Part shown: in pieces, positions 1,435-14,577 of the stretch
How the letters are laid out: each line of letters opens with the position of its first letter
Position numbering within the stretch: position 1 is the first letter of the stretch
Source of the DNA: Actinomycetes bacterium
Lineage (GTDB): Bacteria > Actinomycetota > Actinomycetes > JAWWOW01
Reading direction: 5' to 3'
Length of the DNA: 64,000 nucleotides
Assembly: GCA_045807285.1 (NCBI GenBank)
Contig: JBJMHR010000013.1
Span: 358,770 to 422,769, forward strand
The notes under the pieces: generated by a model
Database searches by the model: none
The model's input: only the letters and a program-made list of their open reading frames with translations
Told to the model about the DNA's origin: nothing
Translations under genes and position numbers: made by a program

Positions 1435-1926
1435 ATGGCAGAGCCGATCAGCGTCAGCATCGACATTGACGCACCGGCAGAGAAGATCTACGCGCTCGTG
1501 GCGGACTTGCCGAGCATGGGCAAGTGGAGTCCGGAAGCCACTGGCGGCAAGTGGCTGGACGGAGCAACGTCGGCCAAGCCGGGCGTGCGCTTTCGCGGCA
1601 CCAACCGGAATGGCGTCTTCCGCTGGTCGACCGTGTGCACGATCACGGCCGCGGAGCCTGGCCGAACCATCGAGTGGGTGACCACGGCGATCGGTTTTCT
1701 GGACGGCGCACTGTGGCGTTACGAATTCGCGCCGAACGGCACCGGCGGTACGACCGTCACCGAGCTCACCGAAGATCGACGCGGGCGGCTGCTGCGCTGG
1801 ACCGCACCGGTCACCGTGGGCGTGAAGGACCGCGCCGGCCACAACCGGCGTTCGATGCAGGCGACGTTGGAGCGACTCAAGGCCGCGGCTGAAGGAGATC
1901 ACCGGGGTGAGGACGCGGTGCGCTGA
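1435..1926 (+). CDS. SRPBCC family protein (polyketide cyclase/dehydrase-like)
   Basis: MAEPISVSIDIDAPAEKIYALVADLP... START/Bet v1-like fold signature; GGGAGG 5 nt upstream of ATG 1435. Confidence 0.75.
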   Translation: MAEPISVSIDIDAPAEKIYALVADLPSMGKWSPEATGGKWLDGATSAKPGVRFRGTNRNGVFRWSTVCTITAAEPGRTIEWVTTAIGFLDGALWRYEFAPNGTGGTTVTELTEDRRGRLLRWTAPVTVGVKDRAGHNRRSMQATLERLKAAAEGDHRGEDAVR

Positions 1927-2393
1927 CGGCCGCGGAGCCGGTCGACGAGCTCGTCGAGGGCGTCCGCGATCTCCGTCGTTCGGTCGTCGTCGAGTTCGCT
2001 GAGGGCGACACCGAGCTGGTCGTGCATGTGCTGGCGCAGTTTCTGCCGCGCCTTGCGTCCCTTCTGCGTGACGGCGTACACGACGACGCGTCCGTCCGCA
2101 GGGTCGCTCTCGCGCGCGACGAGACCTTCCTCTTCCAACTGCTGCAATGAGCGACTTGCGGTTGGCTGGCTGACGTCGAGCACCGCAGCGATCTTCGAGA
2201 CGGAGATCGGACCGCGTTCTTCGACGTAGGCGAGCAGGCGGGAGTTGGTGCGCGAGATTGCGATACCAGTGGCGCTGACCAGGGCCTCATGCACGCGCGA
2301 TGACGCCGTCAACCGGAGCAACTCGCCGACCGCGTTTTCTATGCGGACAAGCTGCCCGTCCTCGGTCGTCACGACGGCGAGGCTATCGGTCAC
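1899..2393 (-). CDS. MarR family transcriptional regulator
   Basis: Winged-helix MarR signature (ISRTNSRLLAYVEERGPISVSKIAAVLDVSQPTASRSLQQLEEEGLV); GTG start overlaps TGA of upstream SDR (GTGA). Confidence 0.85.
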   Translation of the reverse strand: MTDSLAVVTTEDGQLVRIENAVGELLRLTASSRVHEALVSATGIAISRTNSRLLAYVEERGPISVSKIAAVLDVSQPTASRSLQQLEEEGLVARESDPADGRVVVYAVTQKGRKARQKLRQHMHDQLGVALSELDDDRTTEIADALDELVDRLRGRQRTASSPR

Positions 2394-3169
2394 TCCGGCA
2401 ACTCGGGTTGCCAGGCGACGCCGTTGATGTGACCACCGCCGTCGACGAACAGCGTGTTGCCGGTCAGGTAACGGGCCGACTGGCTTGCGAGAAAGACCGC
2501 AACCGGAGCGATGTCGTCGTACGGATCGCCCATGCGACCCATCGGGTTCATGCCGGCGGCCATCTCACCGATCTCCGGGTGTTGCTGTATGACGCGTTCG
2601 AACGCCGCACTGCGCGCGGCCGGACAGATGACGTTGACCGTGACACCGCTCGCCGCCCACTCGCGCGCCGCTGTTCGGGACAGCGCGCGCAGGCCCTCTT
2701 TCGCGACGTTGTACTCCGTCGTACCCATGTGCGCGTTGACACCGTTTAGGGAGCACATGTTGATGATCCGACCGTAGCCGTTTGCTTTCATGTGTGAGTA
2801 CGCCGCTTGCATCGCCCACAGCGGTCCATAGAGGCCAACCGCGAGACCGTGCGCGATGAGCTCGTCGCTCTTGTTCTCGAGCCGGCCGATCTCGCCGCCA
2901 CCCCAGGCGTTGTTGACGAGGATGTCGATGCTGCCGAAGTGCTGATCTGCGGCCTCGACCGCGCGCTGCACGTCGGTCTTGTTGCTCACGTCGGTCTGCA
3001 CGAAGTACGCGTTGTCGCCGAGTTCGTCGGACAGGGCTGCGCAGAGTCCGTCGTTGATCTCCGCGACGACCACACGTGCGCCCTCGTCCACGAAACGACG
3101 GGCGATGCCTCGGCCGATGCCCTCGCCGGCGCCGGTGACGACGGCGACTCGCCCGTCCAGCTGCCCCAC
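2390..3169 (-). CDS. SDR family NAD(P)-dependent oxidoreductase
   Basis: TGAGEGIGRGIA glycine motif, NNAW, catalytic YxxxK (YNVAKEG). Confidence 0.9.
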   Translation of the reverse strand: MGQLDGRVAVVTGAGEGIGRGIARRFVDEGARVVVAEINDGLCAALSDELGDNAYFVQTDVSNKTDVQRAVEAADQHFGSIDILVNNAWGGGEIGRLENKSDELIAHGLAVGLYGPLWAMQAAYSHMKANGYGRIINMCSLNGVNAHMGTTEYNVAKEGLRALSRTAAREWAASGVTVNVICPAARSAAFERVIQQHPEIGEMAAGMNPMGRMGDPYDDIAPVAVFLASQSARYLTGNTLFVDGGGHINGVAWQPELPE

Positions 3170-3171
3170 TG

Positions 3172-4359
3172 TCAGTGGTCGGCGCCGAGGATGAGTGCGC
3201 TCGTGGGTACGCCGGTACCGGCTGTCACGAGGACGTTCTCGACGTTAGGCACCTGGTTGACCGAGGCACCGCGGACCTGGCGCACACCTTCGGCGATGCC
3301 GTTCATGCCGTGGATGTAGGCCTCGCCGAGCTGACCGCCGTGGGTGTTGATCGGCAGCTCGCCGCCGACCTCGATGCGGCCGTCGGTGATGAAATCCTTC
3401 GCCTCACCGGGCTTGCAGAACCCGAACTCTTCGAGCTGCGTCAGCACGAACGGCGTGAAGTGGTCGTAGATGACCGCGGTCTGGATGTCGTCGGGGCCCA
3501 GACCCGTCGTCTCCCAGAGCTGGTCGGCGATGAGCTTCATCTCCGGCAGGCCGCTCATCGACTCGCGGTAGTAGCTCGTCATCATCATCTGGTCGTCAGC
3601 GGCACCCTGCGCAGCGGCGCGAATCACGGCGGGTGCGTTCGGAAGGTCACGCGCGCGTTCGAGGCTCGTGACGACGAGCGCCTGCCCACCGTCACTTTCC
3701 TGGCAGCAGTCGAGCAGGTGCAACGGCTCAACGATCCACCGCGAGCTCTGGTGATCCTCGAGCGTGATCGGCTGCTCGTAGAACCACGCCTTCGGGTTTG
3801 TCGCTGCGTGTTTACGGTCGGCGACGGCGACCCGTCCGAAGTCTTCACTCGTCGCGCCGTACTCGTGCATATAGCGCCGTGCCGACATCGCCACCCATTG
3901 CGCGGGAGTGAGGAGTCCGTGCGGTGAGTACCACGCGTAGTGCGCGTTCTCGGCATTCGGGATCGGTGGCCGCCCTTGTACGCCGGAACCGAACCGGCTG
4001 CCGCTTCGCTCGTTGAACGCGCGATAGCAGACGACGACGTCAGCGACACCGGTCGTCACCGCAAGCGCGGCCTGCTGCACCGTGCCGCACGCGGCACCAC
4101 CGCCGTGGTGAATCCGGGAGAAGAACGTCAGGTCACCGATGCCGAGGTTGCGAGCGATCTCGATTTCGGGGTTGGTGTCCATCGTGAACGTGACCATGCC
4201 GTCGACGTCGGAGAGGGGAAGTCCGGCGTCCTCGACGGCCGCCTGCACGGCCTCGCAAGCGAGGCGCAGCTCGCTCCGGCCGGAGTTCTTGGAGAACTCA
4301 GTGGCACCGATACCCGCCACGGCAGCGGTGCTCGCGAGGCCGTGATGGCGAAGGCTCAT
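3172..4359 (-). CDS. ltp2: Thiolase-like lipid-transfer protein (Ltp2/SCP2-type thiolase; putative retro-aldolase)
   Basis: Thiolase-fold signature, 395 aa, gene order chsH2-chsH1-ltp2 as in the mycobacterial Rv3542c-Rv3540c region; ATGA overlap with upstream gene. Confidence 0.8.
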   Translation of the reverse strand: MSLRHHGLASTAAVAGIGATEFSKNSGRSELRLACEAVQAAVEDAGLPLSDVDGMVTFTMDTNPEIEIARNLGIGDLTFFSRIHHGGGAACGTVQQAALAVTTGVADVVVCYRAFNERSGSRFGSGVQGRPPIPNAENAHYAWYSPHGLLTPAQWVAMSARRYMHEYGATSEDFGRVAVADRKHAATNPKAWFYEQPITLEDHQSSRWIVEPLHLLDCCQESDGGQALVVTSLERARDLPNAPAVIRAAAQGAADDQMMMTSYYRESMSGLPEMKLIADQLWETTGLGPDDIQTAVIYDHFTPFVLTQLEEFGFCKPGEAKDFITDGRIEVGGELPINTHGGQLGEAYIHGMNGIAEGVRQVRGASVNQVPNVENVLVTAGTGVPTSALILGADH

Positions 4360-4757
4360 GGGAGCTTGACCTTCACGGTGCCGGTGACGTGGTCGCCGAG
4401 GCTGTTCGCCCCGCGGACGCTGACTTCGACGGTGTTGTCCGCGTCGTCCTTGCCCGTCACTTCGCCAGTCATCACCATCGTGTCGCCGGGGTAGTTCGGA
4501 GCCCCGAGCCGGATCGACACGTTGCGGAGGATCGCGTCCGGGCCGGCCCAGTCCGTGATGAACCGCCCGACAAAACCGTTGGTGGACAGGATGTTCATGA
4601 AGATGTCCTTGGAACCGCGCTCGACGGCAAGGCCCGGGTCGTGGTGGACGTCCTGGTAGTCACGCGATGCGATGGCCGTCGCGACGATGAGGGTCCGCGT
4701 CAGCGGTACGTCGAGCTGTGGCAACGCGTCGCCCACGACGACATCGGCGTACTTCAT
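4356..4757 (-). CDS. chsH1: MaoC-like (R)-hydratase small subunit, ChsH1-like
   Basis: 133 aa hot-dog fold (MaoC dehydratase) sequence; ATGA overlaps on both sides. Confidence 0.75.
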   Translation of the reverse strand: MKYADVVVGDALPQLDVPLTRTLIVATAIASRDYQDVHHDPGLAVERGSKDIFMNILSTNGFVGRFITDWAGPDAILRNVSIRLGAPNYPGDTMVMTGEVTGKDDADNTVEVSVRGANSLGDHVTGTVKVKLP

Positions 4758-5671
4758 GCAACCGGCCGGAACATCGGCAACGTCAGGTCGTCGTCGACGG
4801 CCACGAACTCTGCTTGCACCGGCATCCCGACCTCTACCTCGGCGGCCTCTACTCCGATGATGTCGGCGACGAGGCGGGTGCCCTCCTGGAGCTCGATGAG
4901 GCCGACCGACAAGGGATAGTCGAACGCCGGGACCTGCGGGTAGTGGTTCACGACGAAGCTATAGACCGTGCCGCGACCACTCGCTTCCACGGTGTCCCAG
5001 TCGTACGACGTACACCTGGGACACACCGGACCTGGCGGGTGCCGCAACCGACCACAAGGCACGCACCGCTGGATGAGCAACTTGTGTTGCTTTGCACCCT
5101 CGAACCAGAACTCGCTGTCCTGTGTGACCGCCGGTCGGGGCCGCAGCGGTTTGGTTTCCATCTTCTCGGGCGGCCGGAACTTCAGGATGCGGAACGTCAT
5201 CGATGCAACGAGGTCACCACCCGCGTCGTGGTAGTCCTGCCGCGTTGTGACGAAGTGGCCGACACCGAGCCCGGTCTTCTTTTCCTCCGAGACCGACTCG
5301 ATGGACGCGGTAACGGTGACCCGGTCGCCGGGACGCAGATAACGCTCGTAGGTCTGCTCACAGTTCGTCGCAACAACGGAGCTGAAGCCAGCGTCGGTTA
5401 GCAGGCTCAGCAGCTCGTCCTGTGCGTTGCCACTTCCGGCCGGCGGCGGGTTGAGCCCGCGCATCACCCAGGCTTGCAGCATCGTGGGCGGCGCGACGAT
5501 GCCGTGGTGCACGGACTTCGCCGCGGCGGCCGGATCGGTGTAGACCGGGTTGGCGTCGCCGACCGCTTCGCACCAATGGCGGATCATCGCCTGGTTGACC
5601 TCGTCCGGTCCCGCTGTCGGCGGACCGACGACGCGCCCCTCGAACGCGCGCAGCTGATCGAGTAACGACAC
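4754..5671 (-). CDS. chsH2: MaoC-like hydratase fused to DUF35/OB-fold Zn-ribbon domain, ChsH2-like
   Basis: N-terminal MaoC-like domain, C-terminal CVPCGRLRHPPGPVCPRC Zn-ribbon plus OB fold typical of DUF35. Confidence 0.75.
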   Translation of the reverse strand: MSLLDQLRAFEGRVVGPPTAGPDEVNQAMIRHWCEAVGDANPVYTDPAAAAKSVHHGIVAPPTMLQAWVMRGLNPPPAGSGNAQDELLSLLTDAGFSSVVATNCEQTYERYLRPGDRVTVTASIESVSEEKKTGLGVGHFVTTRQDYHDAGGDLVASMTFRILKFRPPEKMETKPLRPRPAVTQDSEFWFEGAKQHKLLIQRCVPCGRLRHPPGPVCPRCTSYDWDTVEASGRGTVYSFVVNHYPQVPAFDYPLSVGLIELQEGTRLVADIIGVEAAEVEVGMPVQAEFVAVDDDLTLPMFRPVA

Positions 5672-5717
5672 GCAGCAGACCTTCCGCTCGAGGGCGGCTC
5701 ACCGTAGAAAGAAGCGT

Positions 5718-5731
5718 TTGACTCTGTCAAG
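5718..5731. promoter_or_regulatory. Palindromic operator candidate TTGACTCTGTCAAG in the divergent chsH2/VOC promoter region
   Basis: Exact 14-mer also at 10437-10450; near-identical CTTGACTAGGTCAAG at 11757-11771. Confidence 0.55.
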
Positions 5732-5806
5732 TTTCTGCTCAGCGATGATTTCCGTCGTACCTCGCCGTCACTATGGCGAGAGCATCGGTCCGAGAGGAGC
5801 AGCGCA

Positions 5807-6199
5807 ATGGGAGCACCGGTCGTCCACTTCGAGATCATCGGCAAGGACTACAACGCGCTGAGCGCGTTCTATGGCCAGTTGTTCGACTGGAGGTTCGACA
5901 CGGACAATCCGAGCGGTTACGGCGTCGTGGCGCGCGAGGACAACCTCAACGCTGATGGCATCGGCATCGGCGGCGGCCTCATGGGCATGACCGGCCACCC
6001 CGAGATGGAGGGGTACGGCGGGCACGTGACGTTCTACGTCGAGGTTCCCGACATCGAGGCTGCGCTGGCGAAAGCCGAGCAGCTGGGCGGCAAGCGGATG
6101 ATGGGCCCACAGGCGGTGCCCGACGGTCCGACCATCGCGCAGTTCCTCGACCCGGAGGAACGGATGGTCGGGCTGGTGCAAGCCGGGACGATGGGCTGA
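5807..6199 (+). CDS. VOC (glyoxalase/bleomycin resistance/dioxygenase) family protein
   Basis: 130 aa, HFEIIGKDYNALSAFYGQLFDW... VOC fold signature. Confidence 0.8.
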   Translation: MGAPVVHFEIIGKDYNALSAFYGQLFDWRFDTDNPSGYGVVAREDNLNADGIGIGGGLMGMTGHPEMEGYGGHVTFYVEVPDIEAALAKAEQLGGKRMMGPQAVPDGPTIAQFLDPEERMVGLVQAGTMG

Positions 6200-6224
6200 G
6201 GCTCAGGGTGGGCACACTGCGCCC

Positions 6225-6410
6225 ATGACTGATGACAAGCCGAAGGCCGAGCACGAGCAGGTCGAGGGTCGCGACGTCTTCGTTACCAAGGACGAGAGCG
6301 GGATCACCGCGGTCGCCGAGGAAGAGGGAGCCGCGGATCCCCGGGTCACCACCGAGGACGACTCGTCGAAGGATGACGACTCCTCCGAGGACGCCGACGA
6401 CCGGAGCTGA
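6225..6410 (+). CDS. Small acidic hypothetical protein (61 aa, D/E-rich)
   Basis: ORF only; GGGTGGG about 9 nt upstream of ATG. Confidence 0.3.
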   Translation: MTDDKPKAEHEQVEGRDVFVTKDESGITAVAEEEGAADPRVTTEDDSSKDDDSSEDADDRS

Positions 6411-6414
6411 CGCC

Positions 6415-7863
6415 TCAGCCTTCGGGTAACCGGTACGCCGCGATCTTCCCGTAGTGGTTCGCGATGACGTTGTTTCCCGCGATCGCGACGCCGCTGCCGA
6501 TGCTGGCGCTCGGTTCGATCGGCGACATCCACAACAGCTGACCGGTTGCTGCGTCGAAGGCTTTCAGGGCCGGTTCGTCGACGTAGTAAACGACGCCGTT
6601 CGCCAGCGCGACGTTGCCACCCTTCATCGGTACGCCGGTGAGCGGCGCCTGCCATTTCGTTGCGAACGTGTTCGCGTCAAAGGCGTAGAGCACACCGGGG
6701 TTGGCAGCGACGTACAGCGTCTTCCCGTCGGTTGCGATGCGCGCCAACTCGCCGCCGAGGAACGACAAGCTCACGAACAACTGCTTCTTCCACACCGGTC
6801 GCATCGTCGTGGCATCGAAGACATGCAGCCATCCGGACTTCTGCGTGGCTGCCCCGAGCAACCGCCCGGACCGGTCCCGCCACAGTGTCGGGCCGACGCC
6901 GAAGTCCACGTCGGTCTGGCCGCACGCCGGTGAACCGCCGTACACGCCACCGTTCACCCATGCCTTGTCGCCGACGTTCTGGCAGACGGGGTTGTCGTAG
7001 CCGGTCACGCTGTCGGGTGTGCCCTTGTACGTGCCGACGATCCGACCGAAGGTCGGCCGGGTGCGGTCGAGATCCATCTTGATGATGGAGTCGTCGTACT
7101 GGCTCTCCTTGGTCTTGGACTCGGGATTCGACGTACCGACGTAGAGGTACTTGGTCGTCGCGTCGACTGTGGGCGTCCCCCACACTCCGCCGCCGTGGTA
7201 ACCACGTGCGATCTCGTCAGCCGGGATCGTGGTCGACTTGTAGAGCACCTTGCCGGTGGCGGCGTCGATGATCCCGTAACCCTCCTCGGCGTTCGGATCG
7301 AAGTCCGGACCGGTGGTGAACAGCACCTGAAGCCCGTCGAAGACGATGGCGCTCGCCTGCTGAGTGGTCGAGTAGCCGAAGTAGATCTCGTCGCTCGTCC
7401 AGAGCAGATGTCCGTCACGTACGTCGAACGCCGCGGCCTTCGGATGACCGTCGTTGTTCAGGCCGACGTGCACGCTCCCCTTCGCGACGGTCACAGCGAA
7501 CGTCCCGCTGGTGTCCGCGCCTTGTGAGGTCCAGACGAGCTTGCCGGTGGTCAGGTCGAGCGCCTCGATGTGCCCACCGGTATTGATGAACACACAGCCA
7601 CCGGACACGATCGGCGGCGGTGACTGGTAGCCGGTGTCACCGGTGATCCACGCCTGTTGCAGTGACGCGACGTTCCCGGTTCCGATTGTCGTTTTGGCGG
7701 TCTGGTGCTGCGAACCGTGCAGGTCCTCGCCGTACGTCGCCCAGCTGCCGCCACTCATCTTCTCCGTGCACGGCGCGGCTGCTGCACTGCGCGCGGCCGC
7801 AGGTAGCGCGACGGCCGTCAGAGTGATCGCGACGAGCACCGCCGAGGTACGCCGAGCCCTCAC
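6415..7863 (-). CDS. Secreted PQQ-like (quinoprotein-type) eight-bladed beta-propeller repeat protein
   Basis: Signal peptide from GTG 7863 (VRARRTSAVLVAITLTAVALPAAARSAAAA); PQQ-repeat motifs (ALDLTTGKLVWTS) and YHGGGVWGTPTVDATTKYLYVGTSNP resembling the GGG-W...GTGN region of quinoprotein dehydrogenases; GTGA overlap with upstream gene. Confidence 0.75.
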   Translation of the reverse strand: MRARRTSAVLVAITLTAVALPAAARSAAAAPCTEKMSGGSWATYGEDLHGSQHQTAKTTIGTGNVASLQQAWITGDTGYQSPPPIVSGGCVFINTGGHIEALDLTTGKLVWTSQGADTSGTFAVTVAKGSVHVGLNNDGHPKAAAFDVRDGHLLWTSDEIYFGYSTTQQASAIVFDGLQVLFTTGPDFDPNAEEGYGIIDAATGKVLYKSTTIPADEIARGYHGGGVWGTPTVDATTKYLYVGTSNPESKTKESQYDDSIIKMDLDRTRPTFGRIVGTYKGTPDSVTGYDNPVCQNVGDKAWVNGGVYGGSPACGQTDVDFGVGPTLWRDRSGRLLGAATQKSGWLHVFDATTMRPVWKKQLFVSLSFLGGELARIATDGKTLYVAANPGVLYAFDANTFATKWQAPLTGVPMKGGNVALANGVVYYVDEPALKAFDAATGQLLWMSPIEPSASIGSGVAIAGNNVIANHYGKIAAYRLPEG

Positions 7864-9437
7864 CGCGACAGCCCGTTGACACCGGGCCCGCCGACGCACG
7901 CCGGATCGGTGGCTGACGTGCAGTCGTAGACGCGGAAGTTCCTGAACGACAGGTTTCCCCAGTTGGACGGATCGTCGGTGACCGGGTTCGTCGGGCCCGT
8001 GTCCATCCGGTAGCCGATGCCGTACGTGTAGGAGAAGTTCGGTTGTGACTGCACTTCGAAGTTGTACGGCGCTGGGTCCGGTAAGCAGGTGGCGCAGTCC
8101 GTGACGGTGCGCCCATTGATGCGCACGATGTAGCGCGAGCCGACTTGCACGATCTCGATCTGGCTCCAGTCCGGATATGAGTTCGACTTGATGCGCTGCG
8201 CTGGGTAACCGCTCACCGGGTTGTCGACCGCCCACCCCGTGAGCGCATCCGGCACCGTGTTGCCTTGGATGCCTCCGGTCAGGAACTCACCGGCCTCGCG
8301 CATCTGGATCTCGTGACCACCGACGTATATCGCGCCGTTGTCCTCGAACGCCTGCATCCGGTACGCGAACCGGATCAGCACGTTGTGAAGCTTGCGGGCT
8401 GTGTAGGTCATCGTGCAGCCCTGCTCACCGACGAAGCCTTCGGTTGCGAGCGGCGCGTAGTTCGTCGGCGACTTCGTGTGCACCTGTCGCACGCTGCCGT
8501 CGTCGTCCAGGGCGCAGTTGGACTCCGTCCAGCCGTCGAACGTCGTTCCGTCGAAGATGCGTTTCGTCCCGGCCGGATCGGCGGGCGCTGCATCCGGCAC
8601 CTTCGCGCCGGTGCCGTTGAAGTCGATCCAGCTGATCTCGACGGGCAACGCCGTGAGGTCGGCGGCCAGGAACAGTTCGGGGTCTCGACCGGGAACCTTG
8701 TTCACGATGGGCCACGGCTGCGTCTGCCAGCAGTTCGGCCAGCCGAAGTTGGACTTGTGTGCGTTGTTGAGGTCGTCGGCAACATCGACGGTGCCGATGA
8801 TCGACGGGGCGTCCGGCGCGCCGGCGCGGAGCTCGACACGACTCGGCGTGACGTGCGGCTTCCGTTGCGGGACGCACACGCGCAGCGATACCGAATAGAT
8901 GTGTGTGAAGTCGACCCGACCGACGTCGACTACGTCGCCGGTGGACATCTTCATGGCGCGGTCGCGGGCACCGCCGCGCGGGTCGCGCACGGCGGGCGTC
9001 ACGACTGCCGGCGTACCGGCAGCGGCCTTGCCCTGGTCGACCTCGACCCGCTCGTAGCGCATCGGAACTTCTTGCTGACCGGAGACGAGGCGGATCGTCA
9101 CAGGGTCACCGGCGTCCCAGCCGGTGGCGCGGACGGCCGCCTCCGACGGCACCGATGCGATCCCGATGCACGACCCCGGCGTCAGCGGGTCGGCCGCGGC
9201 ACGCGACTGAGTGCCAACGGCATCGCGTCGTGACCCGCCCCCAACGTGGACGGCCACCGGAGCGTGTACACAGCCTGCTCCGTCGAGCCGGTAGGCGACC
9301 CGGTCGCCAAAGTCGACGGGTCCCCACGCCAACGGAGTGGCGAAGTGCGGTACGCCGGACGCGCGCGCGATCGGAGCAACGACAGCGAGTGCGACGAGCG
9401 GCGCCACCGTGAGGCCCAAACGGGTGTAGCGATGCAT
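7860..9437 (-). CDS. Secreted protein with C-terminal DUF1080 (3-keto-disaccharide hydrolase-like, LamG jelly-roll) domain
   Basis: ATG 9437 followed by signal peptide MHRYTRLGLTVAPLVALAVVAPIARA; RIFDGTTFDGW...IEIVQVGSRYIVRINGRTV matches the DUF1080/PF06439 pattern. Confidence 0.7.
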   Translation of the reverse strand: MHRYTRLGLTVAPLVALAVVAPIARASGVPHFATPLAWGPVDFGDRVAYRLDGAGCVHAPVAVHVGGGSRRDAVGTQSRAAADPLTPGSCIGIASVPSEAAVRATGWDAGDPVTIRLVSGQQEVPMRYERVEVDQGKAAAGTPAVVTPAVRDPRGGARDRAMKMSTGDVVDVGRVDFTHIYSVSLRVCVPQRKPHVTPSRVELRAGAPDAPSIIGTVDVADDLNNAHKSNFGWPNCWQTQPWPIVNKVPGRDPELFLAADLTALPVEISWIDFNGTGAKVPDAAPADPAGTKRIFDGTTFDGWTESNCALDDDGSVRQVHTKSPTNYAPLATEGFVGEQGCTMTYTARKLHNVLIRFAYRMQAFEDNGAIYVGGHEIQMREAGEFLTGGIQGNTVPDALTGWAVDNPVSGYPAQRIKSNSYPDWSQIEIVQVGSRYIVRINGRTVTDCATCLPDPAPYNFEVQSQPNFSYTYGIGYRMDTGPTNPVTDDPSNWGNLSFRNFRVYDCTSATDPACVGGPGVNGLSR

Positions 9438-9541
9438 GACGGTCCCGTGCCTTTCAGGCTGACGCGAATGAGAGCTGGGATCTCTGAGCCCCGCGGACGG
9501 GTATTCGCGCTCGCCGGCCGCTGCACCTGCCGGCCGGGCCT

Positions 9542-10411
9542 CTACTCGTCCAGCTTGAAGACGCGCATGGCGTTCTCGCGCAGGAACTTCGGCCAGACAT
9601 GGTCGCGGAACGAAACGTTCGGCAATTCGTCGAAGATCCGCTCGAGCGAAAGCCCCATCGGGTAGTAGCCGGCGTACATCACCTTGTCGGCACCACGCGT
9701 GTTCGCGTAGTCGACAACTGCCTTCGGGTAGTACTTGGGTGCGAACGCGCTGGTCATGTAGTAGAGCCCGGGCCACTTCAGCATGAGCTTCACGGCGAGC
9801 TCTTCCCACGGCTCCGCACCGTGTCGCATCACGATCCGCAGCTCGGGGAAGTCGTAACAGACCTGGTCGAAGTGCATGACGTCCTGGCACGCGGACGGCA
9901 ACCGCGGTCCGGCGATCCCGGCGTTCACAACGATGGGGATGTCGAGGTCGATACAAGCCTGGTAGATCGGGTAGTAACGCCGGTCGCTCACCGGCACTTG
10001 CGGGTTGCAGCCGGCCGGGAACGTCGTGACGGCCTTGATGTTGTGTTCGTCGTGCGCCGCACGGATGGCACGCACGGTGTCGGTGATGCGGTTCGGGTCG
10101 ACCTCAACCGCGGCAAAGAAGCGGTCCGGATGCTGCTTCACCGCCGTTGCGGCGATGCCGGGACCGAGGCCGACCATGCCCTTCGCAACACCGTATTTGG
10201 CCATCTCGCCGAGCGTGACGGCGATCGAGTCCTGTTCCTCGTCGAGCCGGTTCGGCACGTCCTTGAACATGTACTCGGCCGGAAACTCCATCTCCGCCGA
10301 CTCCTTGTCGTGCAGCTGAGGCTTCATGAAGTCGTAATGGCGACGCGCGTTCGCGCTCGGGAAGCCGATCATCAAGTCGACGACGCCGATGCCGGCCGGG
10401 TATCCGCTCAC
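9542..10411 (-). CDS. Amidohydrolase-2 family protein (TIM-barrel metal-dependent hydrolase, PF04909-like)
   Basis: 289 aa with amidohydrolase-2 features; no signal peptide. Confidence 0.8.
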   Translation of the reverse strand: MSGYPAGIGVVDLMIGFPSANARRHYDFMKPQLHDKESAEMEFPAEYMFKDVPNRLDEEQDSIAVTLGEMAKYGVAKGMVGLGPGIAATAVKQHPDRFFAAVEVDPNRITDTVRAIRAAHDEHNIKAVTTFPAGCNPQVPVSDRRYYPIYQACIDLDIPIVVNAGIAGPRLPSACQDVMHFDQVCYDFPELRIVMRHGAEPWEELAVKLMLKWPGLYYMTSAFAPKYYPKAVVDYANTRGADKVMYAGYYPMGLSLERIFDELPNVSFRDHVWPKFLRENAMRVFKLDE

Positions 10412-10436
10412 GGCGGGTCACCCTGTCGCGGGTTGC

Positions 10437-10450
10437 TTGACTCTGTCAAG
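10437..10450. promoter_or_regulatory. Palindromic operator candidate TTGACTCTGTCAAG in the divergent amidohydrolase/aquaporin promoter region
   Basis: Exact copy of the 14-mer at 5718-5731. Confidence 0.55.
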
Positions 10451-10524
10451 GTTACTTGTCGGCGCTCCGGCTTTGGGGCCACAGTGACGGCGACGGAAAG
10501 AACGGTCCTCAGCAAGGAGGGCAC

Positions 10525-11262
10525 GTGGACGTTCGTAAACTCGTCGCCGAAGCGCTCGGCACCATGCTGTTGGTCATCTTCGCCGTAGGGACGGCCACTG
10601 AGGCGTTCGGCTTCAAGCTCGCGGGTGACGTGTCATCGGGCGTCGTGATGACGGCGTTCGCGTTCGGGCTGGTGCTGTTGGCGCTCGCTTACACGTTGGG
10701 TCCGATCTCGGGCTGCCACGTGAATCCGGCGGTGACCGCGGGCTTCCTCGCCTCGGGCCGGCTGACGTTGCCCGAGGCGATCGGTTACTGGATTGCGCAG
10801 TTCGCCGGGGGCATCGCCGGGGCGCTCGTGCTGTTCGGGATCTTCAGCGGGACTCCGTCGTACAACCGCAAGACGACGGGGCTCGGTGCGGACGGCTGGG
10901 GCAGCCATTCGATCCTCGGCGTGAACGGCGGTGGCGCGTTCGCCGCTGAGGTCGTGCTGACGTTCCTGTTCGTGCTCGTCGTGCTCGCCGTCACAACGCG
11001 TTTCGCGTCACCTGGTTTTGCCGGGTTGGCGATCGGTTTGGCGCTGACCGTCGTTCACCTCGTCGGCATTCCGCTGACCGGTACGTCGGTGAACCCGGCA
11101 CGCAGCCTGGGTCCGGCGCTGATCGTCGGCGGTGACGCACTCAACCAAGTGTGGCTGTTCATCGTTGCGCCCCTCGTCGGCGGCGTTCTCGCTGCATTGC
11201 TGTACCGCTACCTGTTCCGCATCGCCAACGAAGTCGCCGCTGCGGAGGATCTGCAGCCTTAG
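10525..11262 (+). CDS. aqpZ: MIP family channel (aquaporin Z / glycerol facilitator-like)
   Basis: Two NPA motifs (HVNPAVT, VNPARSLGPA), six TM helices; AAGGAGG before GTG 10525 (ORF track start 10456 is probably too far upstream). Confidence 0.85.
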   Translation: MDVRKLVAEALGTMLLVIFAVGTATEAFGFKLAGDVSSGVVMTAFAFGLVLLALAYTLGPISGCHVNPAVTAGFLASGRLTLPEAIGYWIAQFAGGIAGALVLFGIFSGTPSYNRKTTGLGADGWGSHSILGVNGGGAFAAEVVLTFLFVLVVLAVTTRFASPGFAGLAIGLALTVVHLVGIPLTGTSVNPARSLGPALIVGGDALNQVWLFIVAPLVGGVLAALLYRYLFRIANEVAAAEDLQP

Positions 11263-11735
11263 CTCGACGCAGCCTCGACGGCGGGATAGTTGCTCTCGCG
11301 AAGGTCTTCGACGAAGCGACCCATCAGCTTCGCGAAGTCCTGTCGGTCCTTCTCCGACCACTGCGCCAGGACGCCGACCATGTGACCGTGCAGCACGGAT
11401 GCCAGCCGTTGATGCACGCGAAGCCCGGGGGGCGTCACCACGACCAAGTTGACGCGCCCATCCTCCGAGCTCGCGTACCGGCGTACCAGCCCATCTCGTT
11501 CGAGCTGGCCGACCTGGCGTGCTGTCGCACCTGCGTCCATGTGTGCACGCCGTGCGAGCTCACCCATCGGCAACGGTCCGTCCTGACTGATACAACGAAG
11601 GAGGACGTACGCGGGCTGGGACATCACCACGCCGGCGGTTTCTGCCTGGTTGGCATAGACCCGCCGGCTTGCGCTCATGCGGAGCAGTTGTTCGAGGTGT
11701 CGCTGTATCTGCGTCACGCTTTCGGCCTGCGCCAC
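11259..11735 (-). CDS. MarR family transcriptional regulator
   Basis: MarR winged-helix signature (MSQPAYVLLRCISQDGPLPMGELARRAHMDAGATARQVGQLERDGLV). Confidence 0.85.
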   Translation of the reverse strand: MAQAESVTQIQRHLEQLLRMSASRRVYANQAETAGVVMSQPAYVLLRCISQDGPLPMGELARRAHMDAGATARQVGQLERDGLVRRYASSEDGRVNLVVVTPPGLRVHQRLASVLHGHMVGVLAQWSEKDRQDFAKLMGRFVEDLRESNYPAVEAASS

Positions 11736-11756
11736 GCGGGGCAGGTTATCGCTTTA

Positions 11757-11771
11757 CTTGACTAGGTCAAG
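11757..11771. promoter_or_regulatory. Palindromic operator candidate CTTGACTAGGTCAAG immediately upstream of the marR start
   Basis: Same TTGAC-N3-GTCAA architecture as the sites at 5718 and 10437. Confidence 0.5.
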
Positions 11772-11779
11772 GACAGCCG

Positions 11780-12412
11780 TTAACGCGGGTCGACGCGGTC
11801 GATATTCCAGTGCCGTACGACGATGCCCAGGTAGTCGCCGTCCTCGAGCGGCTGCATCGCGAAGCGCGTGATCGTTCGCTGGCCACCCTCGTGGTCCCCG
11901 TACAGCAGGTAGACCGTCAACGTCTCGCCTGACTCGATCGCCTTGCGTGCCGCGAGAAACTCCGGATCGGTCGGGTCCCGCAGCGCGCCCTGCCAGAACC
12001 CAATGTCCCCCGCAGGGACGTAGATGTCCCGCGTGAGCCGATGGAACTCGCCGAGCTCGGGGTGCGGGACTTCACCCATCACGCGTTCGGGCACGAGGAC
12101 CCAGCCGTGCAGCACGGCGATGCCGGCGCCGACGTTCCGCAAGGACATCGTGAGGTAGATCGCCTCGTCGGTGGCCTCGGCAGCACCGCGCGAACCATTG
12201 AGCTTGACCCAGTGGTTGTCCTGGAAGCCCACCTTCACGGGCGGATCGTCGAGCCGCGACGGCATCAAGACGGGCCGGATGCCCGCCAGCAGCGATCGCT
12301 CAGCGCTCCGGGCGGCGCGGTTGCCAGAACGCACCGAGGCAAACGTCGCGACGGCGAGCACGAGCGTGCCACCGGCTGTGGCCAGTGACGAGATCGTCGC
12401 CCAGTCCGCCAC
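11780..12412 (-). CDS. Hypothetical membrane-anchored protein (N-terminal TM helix)
   Basis: ORF with N-terminal hydrophobic helix ISSLATAGGTLVLAVATFASV; no family recognised. Confidence 0.5.
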   Translation of the reverse strand: MADWATISSLATAGGTLVLAVATFASVRSGNRAARSAERSLLAGIRPVLMPSRLDDPPVKVGFQDNHWVKLNGSRGAAEATDEAIYLTMSLRNVGAGIAVLHGWVLVPERVMGEVPHPELGEFHRLTRDIYVPAGDIGFWQGALRDPTDPEFLAARKAIESGETLTVYLLYGDHEGGQRTITRFAMQPLEDGDYLGIVVRHWNIDRVDPR

Positions 12413-13683: not shown

Positions 13684-14577
13684 GTGTCCAGGGAGTCGCC
13701 CCCCACCCGTCGCACGGTAGCCCTGCTCGACGCGGTTGTACGCCGCCCCGGGCACGACCACTCGCTCGCCGAGCTGGCGAAGGAAACCGGCATCAGCAAG
13801 GCCACCGCGCTCGGCATCCTGAACGAACTACAGCAATCCGGCTGGCTCACCCGAGACCCGGGGAACAAGACGTATCGCCCCGGTGCAGCCATGCTCGCCG
13901 CGGGCACGGCCGCTGACGAGGGGTTCGTCGCGGTTCATGCCACCAGGCCGCTGATGACGGCGCTGACGAAGGAGATCGGCGCGGTCTGCACGGCGTCGGC
14001 TGTCATCGACGGCCAGGTCACTGTGCTTGCCCGCACCGAGCCGGATGGGCGCGGCACTCCGGCGTTCCGCGTGGGCCAGCGTTACCCCTTCGCGCCGCCG
14101 TCCGGCGTGATGTTCGTCGCGTGGGACGACAACAAGACGGTCGAGGCCTGGCTGAACGAACCGCCGCTCGCGCCGCTGACGGTCAACAAGACCGAGCTGC
14201 GCGCGGTGGTGGCGTCTTGCCGGGAGCGTGGGCATCTCGTCGTCGGCCTCGGTGAGTCCGACGCCGGGTTGTGGTCACTGCTGTCGGAACTGCCAGACGA
14301 CGCGGTGTCCGCGCAGCTCGGCGTACTTCTGCAGCGACGCATGCCGGGGGGCATGCAGCCCTACGTGGTCGACAACATCGACGCGCGGAAGCGGTACGAC
14401 GTGAGTCTCGTCTGCGCGCCGGTCTTCGACCGCAACGCTGAGATGGCATATCTGCTCACGGTTGTCCTGATGCAAGCCGGCGTGCTTGGTCGCGACCTTC
14501 GCAACGTCACCAGCGCACTGGACCGTACCGCCGGTGAAGCGACGGCAACCCTCAACGGCCGCGACCCGTGGTCATGA
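13684..14577 (+). CDS. IclR family transcriptional regulator
   Basis: N-terminal HTH (LAELAKETGISKATALGILNELQQSGWL) plus C-terminal IclR effector domain. Confidence 0.85.
   Translation: MSRESPPTRRTVALLDAVVRRPGHDHSLAELAKETGISKATALGILNELQQSGWLTRDPGNKTYRPGAAMLAAGTAADEGFVAVHATRPLMTALTKEIGAVCTASAVIDGQVTVLARTEPDGRGTPAFRVGQRYPFAPPSGVMFVAWDDNKTVEAWLNEPPLAPLTVNKTELRAVVASCRERGHLVVGLGESDAGLWSLLSELPDDAVSAQLGVLLQRRMPGGMQPYVVDNIDARKRYDVSLVCAPVFDRNAEMAYLLTVVLMQAGVLGRDLRNVTSALDRTAGEATATLNGRDPWS

Follow-up and report, generated by a model that had tools for sequence, protein, structure and literature searches.

The window analysed here, a 64-kb stretch of an Actinomycetes genome assembly (GCA_045807285.1, contig JBJMHR010000013.1, positions 358,770 to 422,769), contains three exact copies of the palindrome TTGAC-N3-GTCAA, which probably serve as operators of a MarR-family repressor encoded beside them. 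The regulator, MarR2 (11259-11735, minus strand; 158 aa), has the winged-helix domain of its family (Pfam PF01047, 55.9 bits; cut-off 24.6), and the palindrome stands upstream of its gene, of an Amidohydro_2 gene (9542-10411, minus strand; Pfam PF04909, 89.7 bits) and of the operon chsH2-chsH1-ltp2-SDR-marR1 (1899-5671, minus strand). In this operon every junction is a 4-nt overlap or a 2-nt gap. It encodes a ChsH2-like protein with a zinc ribbon and an OB/DUF35 domain (4754-5671; Pfam), a ChsH1-like MaoC hydratase subunit (4356-4757; Pfam), a thiolase-fold "lipid-transfer protein" resembling the aldolase Ltp2 (3172-4359; NCBIfam NF005892, 705 bits, cut-off 469), an SDR protein (2390-3169; Pfam) and a second MarR-family protein, MarR1 (1899-2393; Pfam PF01047, 53.2 bits), all on the minus strand; its gene order is kept in three related loci (L001, L052 and L053).

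Exact matches to TTGACNNNGTCAA are located at 5718, 10437 and 11758 (0.03 expected in the window; none of 100 dinucleotide shuffles gave three), and all three lie in promoters of minus-strand genes. Site S1 (5717-5731; TTTGACTCTGTCAAG, in gene orientation CTTGACAGAGTCAAA) is separated by 46 nt from the GTG start codon of chsH2 at 5671; site S2 (10436-10450; CTTGACTCTGTCAAG, in gene orientation CTTGACAGAGTCAAG) by 25 nt from the GTG of the amidohydrolase gene at 10411; site S3 (11757-11771; CTTGACTAGGTCAAG, in gene orientation CTTGACCTAGTCAAG) by 21 nt from the GTG of marR2 at 11735. S3 lies in the 44-nt gap between the stop codon of a gene for a 210-aa protein and the start of marR2, 9 nt past that stop codon. 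Over 14 nt S1 and S2 agree completely; S3 has a different centre. The four one-mismatch matches to TTGAC-N3-GTCAA in the window are all within open reading frames, one in marR1 (2300) and three in frames of about 1000 codons (19632, 50974, 52018). A preliminary description of this DNA had been made from the letters alone, and its coordinates, site sequences, start-codon distances and gene calls agree with the sequence and with Pfam; marR1, described there as the GTGA-coupled last gene of the chsH operon, does share a GTGA overlap with the stop codon of the SDR gene. A longer palindrome around S1 (AGAAAC ... GCTTCT) was considered and dropped, not being concentric with the core.

Promoters were read by hand with the actinobacterial TANNNT rule for the -10 box. 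The marR2 promoter reads cTTGACC-N16-TAACCT-N7-GTG, with S3 overlapping the -35 box; it has no Shine-Dalgarno sequence, so the marR2 mRNA is probably leaderless. The amidohydrolase promoter reads cTTGACA-N18-CAGGGT-N8-GTG, and here too the mRNA is probably leaderless. The chsH2 promoter reads cTTGACA-N18-TACGGT, with S1 overlapping the -35 box, and is followed by a leader of about 30 nt with a GGAAGG ribosome-binding site. One half-site of the palindrome would double as the -35 box, and the other (GTCAAG) would fill the first 7-8 nt of the spacer.

The reading that we prefer, with a probability of roughly 0.6, is that the palindrome, in the 15-bp, 6-3-6 form (C/A)TTGAC-N3-GTCAAG, is the operator of MarR2, acting as a repressor that switches off its own gene and two nearby catabolic operons. 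A MarR2 dimer would sit on the palindrome with one winged helix-turn-helix per half-site; read towards the gene, the box would supply the -35 hexamer (TTGACA or TTGACC), and bound repressor, by overlapping the -35 box and spacer, would exclude RNA polymerase. Three minus-strand promoters would be controlled in this way, those of marR2 (autoregulation), of the amidohydrolase gene and of chsH2-chsH1-ltp2-SDR-marR1. If MarR2 works like other catabolic repressors of its family, it would be released from the DNA by a pathway intermediate.

Conservation of the box among related loci

Relatives were collected by MarR protein homology, the motif never being used, and comprise 55 loci (751 kb, 69% GC). 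A metagenome scan with the MarR2 alignment yielded two useful loci (L036 and L037), and the same alignment, run against GTDB species genomes, led to 17 Streptomycetaceae loci. In the 55 loci 37 exact boxes occur, where 0.15-0.22 would be expected; every one is in a promoter and none is inside a gene. They comprise 23 boxes proximal to marR2, four in chsH2 promoters, nine in enoyl-CoA (coenzyme A) hydratase promoters and one beside a 44% homologue. All 23 MarR2 orthologues with identities of 59% or more have the marR2-proximal box, TTGACnnAGTCAAG, upstream; these boxes represent 16 distinct sequences, which agree throughout in the ten half-site bases, in A7 and in G13 and vary in the centre and flanks. 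The flanks are unrelated between the lineage of the window and the Streptomycetaceae. Beyond marR2, the box is found at chsH2 promoters (five genomes), at enoyl-CoA hydratase promoters (nine Streptomycetaceae loci) and at the amidohydrolase promoter of the window. Phylogenetic footprinting, suggested in the preliminary description, finds the box kept at the orthologous marR2 and chsH2 promoters of every relative examined.

Close MarR2 orthologues (78-85% identity) are encoded on six metagenome contigs (L001, L002, L003, L036, L053 and L055), and in all six an exact box stands upstream of marR2 at the same distance. Centres (TTA, GCA, TCA, CTA, CAA) and spacers differ among the contigs, unlike the GTG start codon and the -10 box (TAnnCT), which are conserved. 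In the four contigs that reach chsH2 (L001, L002, L053, L055), TTGACAGAGTCAA is found in the chsH2 promoter at the same place as S1.

The Streptomycetaceae loci (Yinghuangia, Embleya, Streptodolium) encode MarR2 at 59-61% identity. Just upstream of marR2, 17 of 17 have an exact box, followed by TACGAT or TATCAT, 6-7 nt and GTG; the box is only 14 nt from this -10 element and is not a -35 hexamer at normal spacing. In nine of the 17 a second exact box occurs within 10 kb, always in the promoter of an enoyl-CoA hydratase (ECH_1) gene located 1.4 kb or 9 kb from marR2. This promoter has the form TTGAC(A/C)-N17-TA(G/C)CGT-N6-GTG, read from the sequence as leaderless, and the box centres vary (ACG, CTT, CAT). 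In the 17 loci, tblastn detected neither a MarR1 orthologue nor any homologue of chsH, the amidohydrolase or IclR within 10 kb.

Looser forms of the box accompany more distant homologues. In L049 (69% MarR2 homologue) three one-mismatch boxes, all intergenic and all sharing GAAGTCAAG, are located at 1494, 2251 and 5683, before a gene for a Peripla_BP_6 solute-binding protein, before an Aldedh-DUF35-thiolase unit and before marR2, which suggests a regulon that includes uptake. The MarR2 homologue of this locus follows DUF35-thiolase genes. L050 (69% homologue) has one one-mismatch box, in the 46-nt gap between an SDR gene and marR2. In L037 (44% MarR homologue) an exact palindrome (1098-1110) lies not upstream of the regulator gene itself, but in the promoter of the next gene (TTGACT-N18-TAGCCT-N6-ATG), the product of which is sulfotransferase-like.

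The probable regulator behind the box

MarR1 and MarR2 are 27% identical. The recognition helix of MarR2 is MDAGATARQVGQLE; its family keeps the helix MD(A/P)GATARQVGQLE, of which MD(A/P)GATARQ is nearly invariant in the family alignment. The MarR1 family keeps a DVSQPTASR helix from 39% to 100% identity, with SQPTASR invariant. In L006 and L007-L009, marR-chsH2/H1-ltp2 operons begin with the gene for a MarR1 homologue (about 50% identity), which confirms a long association of the MarR1 family with the chsH-ltp2 enzymes. TTGAC-N3-GTCAA is absent from the promoters of these homologues. The promoters of L006 (7960-8003) and L007 (7995-8036), two independent sequences that are both probably leaderless, have TTGCAT-N5-ATGGAAG in common. 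This motif, a candidate operator of the MarR1 family, is an imperfect palindrome spanning the -35 box and spacer; the window contains no match to it, even with two mismatches allowed.

MarR2 is the sole regulator detected beside the box at every box locus, in all lineages. Because the Streptomycetaceae keep the box without a detected MarR1 nearby, and because distant MarR1 promoters carry another motif, the box tracks MarR2 and not MarR1. Most economically, MarR2 is the likely binder of all three sites, and the chsH operon, marR1 included, would be under its control. The preliminary description had proposed a small MarR regulon with autoregulation that tied in two MarR genes. The box indeed behaves as an operator linking marR2, chsH2 and the amidohydrolase gene, but the evidence favours MarR2 alone over two regulators, since the box follows MarR2 into loci without detected MarR1 or chsH and since the helix and motifs of MarR1 differ.

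In an alternative that we regard as unlikely, labour is divided: MarR1 binds the AGA-centred S1 and S2 and autoregulates the chsH operon, and MarR2 binds S3 only. The 14-nt identity of S1 and S2, with a centre unlike that of S3, is in favour of such a division, as are the AGA centre kept at chsH2 in L001, L002 and L053, the place of MarR1 in the chsH transcription unit of every close relative, and the MarR1-like genes that accompany chsH-ltp2 operons at 50% identity. It is opposed by the low identity and differing recognition helices of the two proteins, and by the members of the MarR1 family in L006 and L007-L009, which have the same SQPTASR helix, no box, and TTGCAT-N5-ATGGAAG instead. Moreover, MarR2 orthologues without a MarR1 detected nearby already have the box, with the centres ACG, CTT and CAT, at a second promoter that is not that of a marR gene. 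Finally, the AGA lies inside a fully invariant block of 40 nt and is thus conserved no more than its surroundings. This block, AGAAAC-TTGACAGAGTCAA-R-CGCTTCTTTCTACSGTGAG, makes the chsH2 promoter invariant over about 40 nt in the window (5690-5737, minus strand), L001 (11885-11925), L002 (17917-17955) and L053 (7294-7334); its downstream part is RCGCTTCTTTCTACSGTGAG. The marR2 promoter spacers have diverged in the same four genomes.

It also seems improbable that both MarR proteins act on the same box, by competition or in a cascade in which MarR2 sets the level of MarR1 and MarR1 feeds back with a different ligand. marR1 and marR2 are conserved together in the lineage of the window, the invariance of the chsH2 promoter beyond the box suggests an extra constraint, and no alternative motif of MarR1 type was found in the window. 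The recognition helices differ, however, and promoter strength or a short divergence time could account for the extra invariance.

Several points weigh against MarR2 as the repressor at all three sites. Because the chsH2 promoter is invariant over 40 nt, a second factor, for example MarR1, may also act there. The AGA centre is common to S1 and S2 and is missing from the marR2 box. L051 encodes a 57% homologue of MarR2 and is without a TTGAC-N3-GTCAA box; about 45 nt upstream of its divergent ECH gene stands CTGACG-ATA-CGTCAG (8796-8810), with the same TGAC arm and a spacing two bases wider. A consensus scanner reported no canonical sigma-70 promoter in 5600-11900, a blank that is expected because actinobacterial -10 boxes are weak and of TANNNT type. 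For the ligand, gene context points to an acyl-CoA thioester as the likeliest guess, CoA-ester hydratase genes being the recurrent targets; the chsH pathway would likewise act on a CoA thioester. The box counts cover 64 kb of the source genome and 20-kb pieces of other genomes.

That the palindrome is no regulator site at all, and represents either a strong -35 box or a small hairpin with a role as terminator or RNA element, is very unlikely. The half-site TTGACA does equal the consensus -35 hexamer, a terminator scan flagged 10436-10450, and S3 lies 9 nt past the stop codon of the upstream gene. However, the second half-site is invariant in 16 distinct orthologous promoters, though the spacer is free of sequence constraint, and the Streptomycetaceae box, 14 nt from the -10 element, cannot be a -35 hexamer and is yet conserved. 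The terminator or hairpin reading was dropped on folding energies and the missing U tract: folded as RNA the palindromes reach -4.8 to -10.2 kcal/mol (z-scores +1.1 to -2.2), their stems are too weak for an intrinsic terminator, and S1 and S2 are upstream of genes. Binding of the box by another nearby regulator, such as the IclR-type protein encoded at 13684-14577, is scarcely credible: its gene is syntenic in the lineage of the window, but no IclR homologue was detected in the 17 box-keeping Streptomycetaceae loci, and MarR2 is present at every box locus.

The aqpZ segment and the middle box

At the junction of marR2 and the amidohydrolase gene the window has an 847-bp segment (10412-11258). 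It carries an aqpZ-like gene for an MIP channel on the opposite strand (10526-11262, plus strand; Pfam PF00230) and a 114-bp promoter region containing S2; its GC content, 0.659, is not distinctive. The stop codons of aqpZ and marR2 overlap (TTAG, 11259-11262), the genes being convergent with no terminator between them. In five relatives (L001, L002, L003, L053, L055) the stop codon of marR2 overlaps the start codon of the amidohydrolase gene (ATGA), with no intergenic region and no third box, and no aqpZ homologue was found in the 55 related loci. Gene order thus marks aqpZ as a lineage-specific insertion and the amidohydrolase gene as, in all likelihood, the ancestral second gene of a marR2 operon, now with an operator-bearing promoter of its own. 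The ancestral regulon would have had two promoters, those of marR2-amidohydrolase and chsH2, the first of which was later split by the aqpZ segment.

The middle operator, S2, occurs only in this genome, beside the insertion. It shares 16 identical nt with the chsH2 operator of L001 and L053 and no homology beyond them, and it would keep the orphaned amidohydrolase gene under MarR2 control. The aquaporin gene had been counted with the regulon in the preliminary description, a link that now looks incidental: aqpZ is absent from the relatives and was inserted, and the palindrome appears to be upstream of, not overlapping, the sole plausible core promoter. The association of aqpZ with the palindrome is most likely a by-product of the insertion, aqpZ itself probably standing outside the regulon.

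In distant relatives a MarR1-type gene heads the chsH-ltp2 operon behind a different promoter motif, and in the window marR1 is last. A rewiring in two steps may tentatively be proposed, in which the chsH-ltp2 operon was captured by MarR2 through an operator at the -35 box, with MarR1 demoted to the last gene (a two-tier cascade), and in which, after the split by aqpZ, a new operator arose before the orphaned amidohydrolase gene.

Known systems and neighbouring genes

The closest functional analogue of MarR2 appears to be CouR of Rhodococcus jostii RHA1, a MarR repressor that binds the box cATTGA-N5-TCAATg over a TTGACA -35 box at four promoters, its own included, and is released by p-coumaroyl-CoA; its regulon includes a hydratase and the amidohydrolase-superfamily enzyme CouO (PMC4737184). 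Both are actinobacterial MarR proteins, in both systems a promoter has a single inverted repeat, which overlaps the -35 box (at several promoters in the case of CouR), and the targets, predicted ones here, are enzymes of CoA thioesters. The CouR box and the present cTTGA-CnnnG-TCAAg have the core TTGA-N5-TCAA in common. They differ in the outer base, here C or A-T rather than A-T, in the inner C/G pair, which is fixed here, and in the targets, which are a MaoC-type ChsH1/ChsH2 hydratase and Ltp2 aldolase and not cou genes; no CoA ligase gene turned up in the operons examined. In phmmer searches against the PDB, CouR (3FM5/5CYV) was absent from the hits of MarR2 at E<=1e-3, which gives no place for MarR2 in the CouR/FerR/FerC clade, and it matched MarR1 at E=3.6e-6, no better than generic MarR proteins. 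The best PDB E-values of the two MarRs are 6e-9 and 4e-8, and neither is orthologous to a characterised protein.

The boxes PI and PII of MexR from Pseudomonas aeruginosa are GTTGATCCAGTCAAC and GTTGACCTTATCAAC (bioRxiv 10.1101/2024.04.02.587325). They belong to the same class, TTGA(C/T)-N3-(G/A)TCAA, and MexR, like the repressor predicted here, is an autoregulating member of the MarR family. The relation is remote (E=3.5e-4), and MexR uses two adjacent boxes with two dimers to control an efflux pump, in contrast to the single box per promoter and the catabolic targets found here. PcaV of Streptomyces coelicolor, also of the MarR family, has the operator TCAG-N4-CTGA and the ligand protocatechuate (PMC3616709). 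It resembles MarR2 as a catabolic regulator with operators in its own intergenic region and is, weakly, among the closest solved structures (4FHT, E=1.9e-7). PcaV was dropped as an operator model, its operator being unrelated to the box and its ligand and targets differing.

In steroid-degrading actinobacteria the igr/chsH-ltp2 genes are reportedly controlled by KstR/KstR2 of the TetR family. As there, a ChsH1-ChsH2 hydratase and an Ltp2 aldolase would be regulated here, by a MarR protein in place of a TetR protein. The ChsH1/ChsH2-Ltp2 proteins of the window are homologous to the hydratase-aldolase of the steroid side chain, where a DUF35 domain docks the aldolase (PMC11321319, PMC12329534). 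On reading the 135-nt chsH2-VOC intergenic region, in which no pattern search was made, no motif of KstR type was noticed, just the box of MarR type. The substrate of the chsH operon may not be a steroid, because no other steroid genes adjoin it; the Streptomycetaceae regulon uses a crotonase-type hydratase instead.

The switch is of an ordinary bacterial kind, and this particular pair of MarR protein and operator is not known to have been described before. It offers a testable operator-regulator pair for an uncharacterised MarR family in metagenome-assembled genomes of uncultured Actinomycetes and in Yinghuangia, Embleya and Streptodolium, with a predicted operator defined to single-base resolution by comparative genomics. 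The regulator is tied to a ChsH1/ChsH2-Ltp2 operon outside an obvious steroid context and could help to find the substrate of these enzymes, since the repressor probably responds to an intermediate of the pathway; it might also furnish a new CouR-type part for ligand-responsive biosensors. The locus may further be a small natural example of a regulon kept whole after an insertion breaks an operon. The current understanding of MarR regulation is unchallenged; capture and operator gain, if true, would make an evolutionary case study and no new principle.

Downstream of the amidohydrolase gene are a DUF1080 gene (7860-9437, minus strand) and a PQQ beta-propeller gene (6415-7863, minus strand), both identified by Pfam, both with a signal-peptide-like N-terminus, and GTGA-coupled to each other at 7860-7863. 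These had been described as one operon with the amidohydrolase gene. The latter is linked to the regulon through its box, but the membership of DUF1080 and PQQ is weak: they are preceded by a gap of 104 nt (9438-9541), L001 and L053 lack them, and in L002 two other genes stand between them and the amidohydrolase gene, and they have their own, partly homologous upstream region. They are probably outside the regulon. An element CCGGCAGGTG...CGGCCG is common to the DUF1080 upstream regions of the window (9438-9541) and L002 (13360-13406), and this region also contains a GC-rich self-complementary stretch. The VOC/glyoxalase gene divergent from chsH2 (5807-6199, plus strand; Pfam; syntenic in L002 and L053) is probably outside the regulon as well; as with aqpZ, the palindrome seems to lie upstream of the sole plausible core promoter without overlapping it, about 45-57 nt upstream of the predicted transcription start.

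Gene annotation of the window reached to about 16.9 kb. No specific NCBIfam name was obtained for either MarR, the amidohydrolase, the VOC protein or the 210-aa protein (11780-12412), and the last has no Pfam or NCBIfam match. In L003, an ENA contig, the homologues of a luciferase-like monooxygenase gene (7233-8338) and of the amidohydrolase gene (9648-10511) are broken across several frames, probably by assembly indels rather than as pseudogenes. The gene for the 210-aa protein is strictly syntenic in all close relatives, between the luciferase-like monooxygenase gene and marR2.

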